NCBI GenBank assembly: GCA_047602405.1
Contig: JASGHJ010000001.1
Coordinates: 1,056,001 to 1,120,000, forward strand
DNA length: 64,000 bases
From: Anaeromyxobacteraceae bacterium
GTDB taxonomy: Bacteria > Myxococcota > Myxococcia > Myxococcales > Anaeromyxobacteraceae
Reading direction: 5' to 3'
The notes under the pieces were generated by a model. The model did not search any database. It worked only from the letters and a program-made list of their open reading frames with translations, and was not told the DNA's origin. Numbering within the stretch: position 1 is the first letter of the stretch; each line of letters begins with the position of its first letter. Positions 16,461 to 19,596 of the stretch are shown piece by piece. Made by a program: the position numbers and the translations under genes.

Positions 16461-16775
16461 GTGTTCGAGGTGCGCTTCTACTCGACCGAAGCGGCCCGGT
16501 CGCAGCCGACCGACTTCCTCGGTTCGTTGCCTGCCCGTGATCGGGCGCAGGTCGTGGCGGACATCGCAGCGCTCCGGGATCACGGACTGCAGGCGCCGAT
16601 CTCCATGAAGCCGATCAAGGGGCGCCAGAACCGGGGCATGTTCGAGATTCGAACGGGAGGATTCCGCACGCTCTTCTGCCAGCGCAGCGGGGTGGTCTGG
16701 ATCCTCCACATCTGTCGCAAGCAGGATCAGGACGCGGGCATCGAGGCGGCCAGCGCAAGGATGAAGAGGCTCTGA
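16461..16775 (+). CDS. RelE/HigB-like (Gp49-type) toxin
   Basis: MFEIRTGGFRTLF...WILHICRKQ; toxin-first gene order ahead of an XRE gene. Confidence 0.8.
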   Translation: MFEVRFYSTEAARSQPTDFLGSLPARDRAQVVADIAALRDHGLQAPISMKPIKGRQNRGMFEIRTGGFRTLFCQRSGVVWILHICRKQDQDAGIEAASARMKRL

Positions 16776-16776
16776 G

Positions 16777-17184
16777 ATGAGGAAGACGACAAGGCCGGCG
16801 AAGCGAACGCCGAAGGCGAAGCGCCCGGGCGGGGTGGGGCTGGACGCGTACCTCGGTCAGCAGCTCGAGGATCCCGGCTTCCGTCACGCGTACGAGCAGC
16901 GGCGGCTCGTTCACGAGGTGGCCATCGTGGTCCGCAGCATGCGTGAGCAGGCCGGGCTCACCCAGGCGCAGCTCGCGAAGCTGGTGGGCGTCAGCCAGCC
17001 GATGATCGCCCGCATGGAGCGCGGCCTCGATCAGCGGACGCCGCGCTGGGAGACGTTGCGGAAGATCGGCCGGGCGCTCGGAAAGCAGCTGAAGCTCTCG
17101 TTCGTCGATGCGGACGGAGACGAGGCGCTCGTGGAGGTGGACGGGATGCCGGTGCGCCGTGCCGAGGCTTCGCAGCGAACCTAG
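16777..17184 (+). CDS. XRE-family HTH antitoxin (HigA-like)
   Basis: REQAGLTQAQLAKLVGVSQPMIARMERG...PRWETLRKI. Confidence 0.85.
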   Translation: MRKTTRPAKRTPKAKRPGGVGLDAYLGQQLEDPGFRHAYEQRRLVHEVAIVVRSMREQAGLTQAQLAKLVGVSQPMIARMERGLDQRTPRWETLRKIGRALGKQLKLSFVDADGDEALVEVDGMPVRRAEASQRT

Positions 17185-17488
17185 AGCGCGAGGCGTCCCT
17201 TCAGGGACATCACCGGTGATGTCCCCGCGGGGTTGCGGTCCTCGTGGAGTCGATGGCGTCGCTCGAGCTCCGTCCGTCCGGAGACGACGGCCGGAAGCGA
17301 GGGCCCTGCGCGTCACGGCCTGGAGGCGCGCCCTGGCGGCGTGGGCGGTCTCGGTCCTGTTCGTGCTCGCGGGCCTGTGGGCTTTCGGGGAGCGGTTCCG
17401 GTCTTGAGCCCGGGATTCGTTCCAGGATCGGGTGCGTCCCTCGTCTTCGGGCCGCTGCGCGGCCCTACGCTGCTTCGAAATGCCGGGG

Positions 17489-18743
17489 TTAGGAGGTGAC
17501 CGCCTCGGGTGTCTGTGAGGTGACGGTCACGCTATAGCCGAGGCGCTCAAGGCGGCGAACGAGGTTCTTGGCGACGCGCTTTTCGTCGACCCGGTCGAGG
17601 TAGGTGTCCCCGAGGTCCTCGTACGGCACGTGTTTCGTGAGGATTCTCATAGGCAGCGTTGAGGATCTTGTGGGCGATGGCGAAGGTGGCTCGCTTGTGT
17701 CCTCGGCGGGCCTTGAGGCGGAAGTACTTGTCTCGCAGGTAGGTCTTCTTGGTGCGGATGGCTGCGCCGGCAGCCTCGACCAGGGTCGACCGGAGGTGAA
17801 CGTTCCCCTTCCGCGAACGCCCGGAGCGCCGCTTCCCGGCCGATTCGTCGTTCCCGGGGCAGACGCCAGCCCAACTCGCCAGGTGGCGCGGGCCGCCGAA
17901 GACGGACATGTCGGGGCCGATCTCAGCGAGAAGTGACGCGCTGGTCTGGACCTTCACGCCCGGGATCGTCGAAAGCAGCTTGACCTGCTCGCGATAGGGC
18001 TCGAGTCGGCGCTCGATCTCCCTCTCTAGCGTGTCGACGTCGCGGTCAGCAGCGTCGAGCCGGTCGAGCTGTAGCCGCAACATGTACCGGTGGTGATCGC
18101 GGAGCCGGCCGTCGAGGGCGGCCTCGAGCTCGGGGATCTTCTTACGTAGGAGCCCTTCGGCGAGCTTCGCGAGGTTGCGCGGGTCGGATTCGCCATCGGC
18201 CATCGCTCGCAGCATCGCCATGCCAGACTTGCCAAAGACATCCGAGGCAACGCTTGCGAGCTTCACGTTCGCGGTCTCGAGGACCTTCTGTAGTCGATTG
18301 CGCTCGGACGTCCGGGCCTGGACGACCGAGCGTCGGTACCGAACGAGGTCCCGTAGGTCGCGAAGGTAGAGCGGCGGCACGTAGCTCTTGCGGATCAGCC
18401 CCATCCTCACGAGTCGGGCGATCCACTCCGAGTCCTTCACGTCCGTCTTGCGGCCTGGGACGTTCTTCATGTGCTGCGCGTTGCCAACGACGAGCTCGAG
18501 CTCGCCCGCCGACTCCAGCACCGCGTAAACGGGCTTCCAGTAGACGCCCGTGCTCTCCATGGCCACGTGCGTGACGTGCTCCTCGCGCAGCCACTCCACG
18601 AGCGCCAGCAAGTCGCGCGTGAACGTCGAGAACTCCCTCACGCACTTGCGCAGCCTGGAGCCCTCTCCCAGCAGCACGCAGGCCGTCACTTGCTCCTTGT
18701 GAACGTCGAGTCCACAGACCCGATCGACAACGATTCCTTCCAT
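17489..18743 (-). pseudogene. IS110 DEDD recombinase/transposase with a +1 frameshift at about 17644 (real or sequencing error)
   Basis: GLDVHK, MESTG, KTDVKD, IPGV and ESAGK motifs; removing one base gives the family-type tail YEILTKHVPYEDLGDTYLDR...LVRRLERLGYSV ending at TAA 17489. Confidence 0.9.
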
Positions 18744-18749
18744 GACCAC

Positions 18750-19000
18750 CTCCGGGGAAGGAGGCGGTCGCTGCGCCGCGGGGTAGCTTCTAGGACACTG
18801 CTTCACGCCCTTCCCAGGCATGCATCTGCCCAGGTACGGCACACCGTGGTACCCATTCGCAGCGCGGGCCGGTCTCGGGGACGGGGTTCCTGGCAGGACC
18901 GCCGAACGTAGCAACGGCCTTCTGAGCGACCACCTCCGAGGTCGATCGCTACACCGGGACCGCCCGCGCGCTCAACCAACGGCAGGCATTTCATGCCCCC
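18750..19000 (-). ncRNA. Putative IS110 bridge/seek RNA (boundaries approximate)
   Basis: Structured non-coding end; internal loop with CUACGUU (18905-18911) and CCCCGAG (18874-18880) complementary to both target flanks; GAAGCAG (18798-18804) matches the donor end. Confidence 0.75.
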
Positions 19001-19074
19001 CGGTGGACGTGTCCGTCCATGAGGTCTCGGGACGAACGGGAGTTGACCTTCCCCGTTCGCCCCGACCGCAGCCC

Positions 19075-19596
19075 TCACGCCATCGCGTGGCCGTGCCCGT
19101 GACCACCGTGCCCGCCGTGCATCCCGCGGCGATGGCCGCACCGGCCGCGGCGCCCGGGGCCCTCGGCGACCATCGCGGCGAGCTCGGTGCGCTGCGCGGG
19201 GTCGAGCGACGCGTGCACGCGGGCGATCGAGCCGGCGAGCCGGGTGCGGAGCGCGGACAGCTTCGCGAGCGGGCCCTCGAGCGCGGCGGAGACGGCGGCC
19301 TCGTCGAGCGCGGGCTCGGCGAGGAGCTTCGCGAGGGAAGCCCGCACGCCGGCGGCCTCGCCGCGCAGCTCCTGGGCGTCGAAGAAGAGCGCGTCGAGCT
19401 CGGCCTTCAGGATGCGCTCCTGCTCGGGCTTCGCGCCGAGGCGGCGGAAGAGCCAGACCATGCGTGCGCGGGGGCCGTGCACGCCGCCCCGGCGGGCGAA
19501 GCGGTGGAAGGCGGCGCGGAAGACGAGGCGGCGCAGCGCGCCGAGGACGAAGAGGGCGGCGATCGCGCCGAGGAAACCGGACCAGAACGGGGACAT
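19075..19596 (-). CDS. Spy/CpxP- or periplasmic metal-sensor-like helical protein with His-rich tail
   Basis: N-terminal TM segment, LGAKPEQ and LDPAQR (LTxxQ-like) motifs, tail HGGHGGHGHGH. Confidence 0.65.
   Translation of the reverse strand: MSPFWSGFLGAIAALFVLGALRRLVFRAAFHRFARRGGVHGPRARMVWLFRRLGAKPEQERILKAELDALFFDAQELRGEAAGVRASLAKLLAEPALDEAAVSAALEGPLAKLSALRTRLAGSIARVHASLDPAQRTELAAMVAEGPGRRGRCGHRRGMHGGHGGHGHGHAMA

Follow-up and report, generated by a model that had tools for sequence, protein, structure and literature searches.

An IS110-group element lies on the minus strand of the 64,000-nucleotide stretch of Anaeromyxobacteraceae DNA analyzed here (the window), at 17470..19027 from core to core, and is one of four copies in the genome that are near-identical (about 99% to one another). 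In all four, a short AG on the gene strand is common to both ends without other duplication, as a preliminary description of the locus had said of the transposase strand; on the plus strand this core reads CT, at 17470..17471 (right junction) and 19026..19027 (left junction). The non-coding left end is identical among the copies, and divergence starts just outside the AG at both ends. The recombinase gene (17489..18743, minus strand) gives profile matches to PF01548 and PF02371 and scores 293.6 bits against NF033542 (cut-off 140). Its DEDD residues (D13, E63, D101, and D104) and Tnp serine (S301) align with catalytic residues of IS621, so that the enzyme has the DEDD RuvC-like domain and the Tnp domain with catalytic serine of an IS110-family bridge recombinase. 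One of the other copies (C2, locus L006) carries a 9-nt in-frame duplication within this gene. Just past the right flank, at 16461-17184, lie a Gp49/DUF891-like gene and an HTH gene, presumably a toxin-antitoxin pair.

As assembled, the recombinase has 398 aa and ends at 17547; those of relatives mostly have 408 to 428 aa. The cause is one extra base near 17645; beyond it, the conserved C-terminal helix is read in a different frame, up to a stop at 17489-17491. The helix is lost in this way from all four copies, with the extra base in the form GAATC in three and GATTC in one. Across the genome, +1 shifts of coding phase were seen at 121 of 242 GAATC sites and 120 of 238 GATTC sites scored, and shifts in the opposite direction at 8 and 12, respectively. 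Most of the +1 shifts (241 coding-context sites in all) stand in an AGATC-like context, and GATC sites show shifts at only 219 and 223 of 19451. Given these systematic one-base insertions, the apparent frameshift is probably an assembly error and the gene probably intact; a real lesion or a programmed shift is disfavored, and the repair of the transposase foreseen in the preliminary description would probably not be needed. It also follows that pseudogene calls in this assembly are unreliable.

All four copies interrupt one and the same REP-like host repeat, at its AG/CT core. Here the split repeat occupies 17435..17469 (first half, with its own hairpin at 17449-17465) and 19028..19040 (second half) of the plus strand, and intact copies lie near 428 and 38007. 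The core motif of the repeat is present in 176 copies; for 200 shuffled motifs, the mean was 12, the median 5, and the maximum 168. A hairpin of variable sequence and kept pairing stands just before the left target, 4 to 5 nt from the core; the donor hairpin discussed below lies on that side too. An RNA loop had been read as matching the REP flanks of the CT core, and it does; the site named for it, GCTACG-CT-CGGGG, is that of only one of the four copies. The empty site of the studied copy is CCCTACG-CT-CGGGA, with one mismatch to each target guide, and the commonest form of the repeat is CCTACG-CT-CGGGA (78 copies, versus 28 for GCTACG-CT-CGGGG).

Upstream of the recombinase gene, the minus strand encodes a predicted bridge RNA whose core, with two internal loops, spans 18760..18935. 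The target-loop sequence first quoted for it is exact, and the internal loop between two stems is reproduced by RNAfold and by RNAalifold on 43 related sequences. Its outer stem, GGCCG/CGGCC, joins 18919-18915 to 18871-18867, and its 5′ and 3′ strands are 18914-18905 and 18881-18872. The z score of the whole 286-nt region in RNAfold is only -1.58. In the family fold, which has the same target loop and two internal loops overall, both partners have changed in 23 of 30 pairs (0 of 500 for shuffles), the structure being derived from the same alignment. The non-coding end is thus predicted to fold into two internal loops. Rfam gave no match at E up to 1 in 17200-19300; no sigma-70 consensus promoter was found in 17300-19300, nor a clear promoter, by eye, at the circle junction. 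A 455-aa ORF from a TTG at 18914 through the RNA region was treated as incidental. In the predicted leader fold, the likely ribosome-binding site, at 18745-18775, is base-paired; published systems are described here and below from the accessible parts of the papers cited, and a paired ribosome-binding site is described there for the ISPpu9 leader (PMC8450116). We regard the bridge-RNA reading of the element as nearly certain, and judged from its sequence the recombinase would be guided by this RNA.

Covariation between guides and DNA was scored in a family of related elements. The 164 loci collected comprise 7 found in 3 of the 92 family genomes, 77 taken from the best 80 of 578 genome matches, and the best 80 of 594 metagenome matches. 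Anchoring succeeded for 144, and both ends were present in 129; after removal by hand of L052 and L081 (mis-called or doubtful repeat), 127 loci remained, which form 62 clusters at 90% protein identity. From the protein tree of 84 distinct elements, 42 independent pairs were cut. Loci L173-L176, whose ends and guides were not mapped, were left out of scoring.

The 5′ target guide, T1 (UUGCUACGUU, 18905..18914, minus strand), pairs with the gene strand over the core and the flank beyond the right end. It matches CTACG plus the core, with one G-U, in all four genome copies, and the next base in one. The 3′ target guide with its handshake, T2 (UCCCCGAG-AC, 18872..18881, minus strand), pairs with the plus strand across the left junction and matches CCCG-AG in all four copies and the fifth base in three, the exception being the studied copy. 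For cores placed without use of the guide, T2 scored 4.82 of 6 against its own left flank, compared with 2.04 when flanks were swapped (62 clusters; 0 of 5000 permutations), and 61 of the 62 clusters scored above their swapped mean. A count of T2 co-changes (85:0) was set aside as circular, the core having been placed with T2. T1 is the looser target guide: it scored 5.04 of 8 on its own flank and 3.85 on swapped flanks (56 clusters), with own pairing ahead of crossed pairing in 24 and behind in 4 of 34 independent pairs, and in a relative with 13 distinct sites the T2 flank is kept and the T1 side varies widely. Both target guides thus vary with their flanks across 62 clusters of differing targets, the covariation check set beforehand, and the same loop was not found to persist there despite different targets. 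The main claim of the preliminary description, a decodable target guide, therefore holds. A reversal of guide order relative to IS621 had also been noticed; it is true relative to the gene, yet the order is the one published for IS1111 seekRNAs (PMC11187229). The layout within the RNA is that of IS621 (PMC11208160), the element merely being inserted the opposite way relative to the CT core. Such target reading, and the targeting of REP repeats, belong to an already known kind of system.

In the second internal loop, the 3′ donor guide, D2 (UGAAGCAG-UG, 18796..18805, minus strand), pairs with the plus strand of the core and right end through 8 nt (18805-18798, one G-U) followed by a 2-nt handshake. 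The preliminary description had the positions right, matching GAAGCAG (18798-18804) to CTGCTTC (17470-17476); it took the guide for a hairpin loop, a form that the single-sequence fold also gives and that the family fold supersedes by placing it on the 3′ side of the second internal loop. D2 scored 7.50 of 8 against its own right end and core and 5.19 against swapped ones; in the 42 independent pairs its co-changes ran 46:0, with 16 guide-only and 3 site-only changes. The dinucleotide that follows T2 agrees with the start of the element (its first 2 nt), and the one that follows D2 agrees with the target, with one G-U. The target-loop handshake scored 1.93 of 2 against its own non-cognate DNA versus 1.37 (0 of 5000), and the donor-loop handshake, which is weaker, 1.10 versus 0.87 (14 of 5000). 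Loci L062, L086-L089, L100, L161, and L162 have an AA core, with a matching AA in both 3′ guides.

The second donor guide, which the preliminary description had missed, lies at 18842..18851 (D1, UACCACGGUG, minus strand). An IS621-type 5′ donor guide would pair with the opposite strand beside the core. No signal of this kind appeared in any register tried: pairing beside the core scored 4.11 on own and 4.19 on swapped sites, and four canonical registers gave 2 to 5 concordant against 2 to 5 crossed co-changes. D1 instead matches, in the same sense, a site 20 to 29 nt inside the left end (18996..19005, plus strand), its predicted partner. Over the 62 clusters, the match to this internal site is 6.31 of 10 for own and 4.46 for swapped sites (0 of 5000 permutations), and 3.13 versus 1.80 for the variable half of D1 alone. 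In a scan of 59 offsets in both senses, this was the single peak (excess 1.81; next, 0.38), antisense showing nothing, and slides of 1 to 3 nt lose the signal. The 42 independent pairs contain 31 concordant and no crossed co-changes among the double changes, with 19 of other kinds; 19 pairs favor own and 3 favor crossed pairing. Single-sided changes are frequent (34 guide-only and 50 site-only), making D1 much looser than D2, and 11 of the 62 clusters score 5 or less. In the studied element itself, 6 of 10 positions agree exactly between D1 and its own site (7 with G-U), compared with 5.4 for the sites of other clusters; other registers score equally, and the claim for D1 thus rests on the family.

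Ten further elements (8 plasmid elements of cultured bacteria and 2 relatives with the RNA downstream) gave D1 scores of 7.1 on own versus 4.6 on other sites, ranging from 4 to 9 (0 of 20000), in a test whose D1 motif filter and two registers were chosen after the loci had been viewed. In those 2 relatives (L074 and L163, each at 2330-2500), the RNA is about 1.3 kb away from the left end, and D1 matches 9 and 8 of 10 positions with hairpin and spacing kept. Both encode 385-aa recombinases lacking the C-terminal helix. Since they keep the left-end layout, we rejected the helix as a required binder of the hairpin. In L163, the left end is duplicated.

Taken at face value, the weak D1 match in the studied element would suit an ordinary IS621-type duplex donor, in which the 5′ donor guide has been missed or has decayed and the internal match reflects chance or shared ancestry. 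The lack of canonical signal in every register tried, the 31:0 concordant changes in independent pairs with one sharp peak, and the agreement of the ten held-out elements make this explanation highly improbable, and the 42-pair covariation largely refutes it. D1 very probably does pair with the internal site.

What, then, surrounds that site? Reading inward from the left core, the order is core, hairpin, internal site, and an inverted repeat of the right end. The hairpin in the DNA (19004..19019; 6-bp stem, 4-nt loop) is 6 nt from the core; the 8-bp sub-terminal repeat (18985..18992) is 34 nt from the left core, and its right counterpart (17477..17484) 5 nt from the right core. A left-end stem of at least 5 bp, 6 to 7 nt from the core, is present in 48 of 57 clusters (13% of shuffles), and in 32 of the 57 the spacing is 6+11 or 7+12 nt. 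With this near-fixed spacing, the layout is 7+2+5, as in the 14-nt site of IS621/IS622. The hairpin varies in sequence with its pairing kept (54 to 55 of 56 Watson-Crick at four positions, the arms having been chosen for best pairing). The six central pairs of the inverted repeat are Watson-Crick in 54 to 57 of 57 clusters, with compensatory changes, figures that are partly circular because the left repeat was located through its match to the right one. In the linear element, the left repeat can also form a competing local hairpin (18985-18997).

Along the plus strand of a circle junction, the left repeat would come first, followed by the site, the hairpin, 7 nt, the CT core, 5 nt, and the right repeat. 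When such junctions were computed, the two repeats paired in 51 of 57 clusters on the CT strand and in 53 of 57 on the AG strand; because the repeats themselves set the window limits, the z scores of these folds are inflated. The internal site is unpaired with the 7 nt that it faces in this fold (mean 1.8 of 7). Right end, core, and left end are also joined in natural DNA, among relatives only, in the tandem elements of L021, L023, and L026-L029, which have the circle-junction form; in the L023 junction the repeats pair, and the fold is no better than shuffles (z of -0.32 and -0.75). In L167 (1815-1890), the left target is repeated after the right end, and a second left end also follows there. 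Wobble pairs differ by strand. At D1 positions 1 and 3, the G-U bias (37:1 and 14:1) favors the CT strand, as does the G-T bias beside the hairpin (29:4 and 12:2); in the inverted repeat, it mostly favors the AG strand (14:2, 17:3, and 14:1, with one position at 0:10).

That last bias falls on the transcribed strand, and the IS621 bridge RNA begins with a 5′ stem-loop (PMC11208160), as would be expected if the left-end hairpin and repeat acted within the transcribed RNA. This is improbable: sequences of the same sense are unable to pair within one transcript, D1 and its site change together at individual positions and still match when the RNA is about 1.3 kb distant, and in ISPpu9 transcription starts about 84 nt inside the element, past the 41-nt A box (PMC8450116).

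Since both donor guides match the same strand, the ends are likely recognized as one folded strand, and we lean toward the view that the element reads its own ends in this way, with the folded donor as the working substrate. We imagine that the RNA-loaded recombinase would copy the CT strand (the plus strand of the window) out as a circle. The junction strand would then fold back, with the left-end hairpin capping one arm, the paired inverted repeats forming the other, and the internal site taking the place of the absent opposite strand inside a pre-opened bubble. D2 would pair with the core and right end and D1 with the internal site, while T1 and T2 paired with the two strands of the repeat; the strand would be inserted through a single strand exchange at the core, which the two handshake dinucleotides would lock, and host replication or repair would complete the process. 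This proposal also covers a supercoiled duplex circle from which the fold is extruded as a cruciform, the data fitting both alike. All four guides covary with their sites, and the anatomy of the ends is plain to see; from these we infer that the RNA is expressed and pairs as mapped, that the strand folds, and that a single-stranded route is taken. That CT would be the strand copied out follows by analogy with IS621, where the first strand to be cut is the one paired with the 3′ guides (PMC11208158). Single-stranded circles have been reported for IS621 (10.64898/2026.08.31.748434) and CazIS110-1 (10.1101/2025.10.25.684509). Counted against a folded donor are the weak D1 match of the studied element, the AG-strand bias in the repeat, the weak L023 fold, the ISPpu9 palindrome mutant, which still formed circles (PMC12288879; integration was not assayed there), and CazIS110-1, whose duplex circles integrate about 20-fold better at one junction (10.1101/2025.10.25.684509).

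Several of these observations would suit a different role for D1, in which it contacts duplex DNA as an accessory anchor or for regulation, with the 3′ guides alone driving the chemistry ("half-match"). The hairpin and inverted repeats would then be protein-binding signals without fold-back, and D1 might, for example, occupy the left end near the promoter. D1 pairing is looser than that of D2, circle formation by the ISPpu9 mutant needs no intact palindrome (PMC12288879), half-match excision is reported for IS621 (10.64898/2026.08.31.748434), the wobble bias of the repeat is off the predicted strand, and for IS1111 elements, whose sub-terminal repeats are perfect, the accessible text describes no fold-back (PMC11187229). 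Left unexplained by such an anchor are the spacing of hairpin, site, and repeat that rebuilds a 14-nt donor, the varied hairpin sequence with its kept pairing, and the persistence of the match with the RNA downstream. We consider the anchor a serious contender, though a doubtful one.

The element resembles IS621 and ISCro4 (IS622) in its DEDD and Tnp-serine enzyme, 2-nt core, and REP target (PMC11208160; PMC11208158; 10.1101/2025.05.14.653916; PDB 8wt6 and 9t56), and in an upstream RNA with target loop before donor loop; as in IS621, the handshake dinucleotides match non-cognate DNA (PMC11208158; PMC13626964). Unlike IS621, it has a distant protein (E of 2e-16) about 90 aa longer, a core that is AG on the gene strand, a left-end hairpin with 8-bp inverted repeats, and a 5′ donor guide that covers an internal same-strand site rather than core-adjacent donor. 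With IS1111 seekRNA elements, it shares a top-strand match before the bottom-strand match and sub-terminal inverted repeats (PMC11187229). In that group, the RNA is downstream, the repeats, of 11 to 13 bp, lie 7 and 3 nt away from the ends, and the enzymes have 330 to 350 aa (PMC11187229), whereas here the RNA is upstream, the repeats are 8 bp at 34 and 5 nt, and the enzymes have about 410 to 420 aa; in repeats, RNA position, and enzyme length, the element departs from the IS1111 group.

Closer in its ends is ISPpu9 of Pseudomonas putida, also of the IS110 group, with an AG core, a left-end palindrome, and a REP target (PMC12288879; PMC8450116). By our reading of its published A and B boxes, 7 nt, a 5-bp hairpin, 14 nt, and a 6-bp repeat follow one another, and this repeat is complementary to one in the B box 5 nt before the core, the same end geometry as in our element. 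The likeness is thus one of core, target, and end geometry. The accessible parts of both papers describe no guide map or fold-back (PMC12288879; PMC8450116). The authors leave the role of the palindrome in integration open and describe the group as lacking inverted repeats (PMC12288879). A stem-loop 5′ of the left target in REP is shared with ISPpu10; the work on that element concerns the target, whereas the unusual feature here is on the donor side (10.64898/2026.03.19.712850).

The novelty lies in the donor loop, with four guides mapped to the base. We found no description of a fold-back or a same-strand donor guide in the literature searched, which covered the text of mostly freely readable papers. 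The accessible text of 10.1101/2025.05.14.653916, 10.64898/2026.08.14.744561, 10.64898/2026.10.21.760802, and PMC8450116 contains no such guide; figures and bioRxiv supplements beyond that text, such as Extended Data Fig. 10 of PMC11208160 with its six bridge RNA maps, may bear on novelty.

It is an evenly poised question, in our judgment, whether the bridge RNA in a large branch of IS110 elements became rewired and now grips both donor halves on one self-folding strand, as an RNA-guided counterpart of attC committed to single-strand copy-and-paste. In integrons, the folded single strand of attC is the recombination substrate, and one strand exchange is finished by replication; the recombinase there is a tyrosine enzyme, and the site is read by protein rather than under RNA guidance. 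The likeness is one of analogy only.

Whether IS110 circles are single or double stranded is openly disputed (10.64898/2026.08.31.748434; 10.1101/2025.10.25.684509). An IS621-type donor loop requires both strands; if our proposal is true, a loop reading a single folded strand would show how full recognition of a single-stranded circle is possible, and it would give the left-end palindrome of ISPpu9 a role. It would also explain why such orthologues could fail with a reconstructed duplex donor: survey donors were rebuilt from 25 nt on each side of the core (10.64898/2026.10.21.760802) and miss most of the internal site. Elements of this kind may then offer programmable insertion of single-stranded cargo.
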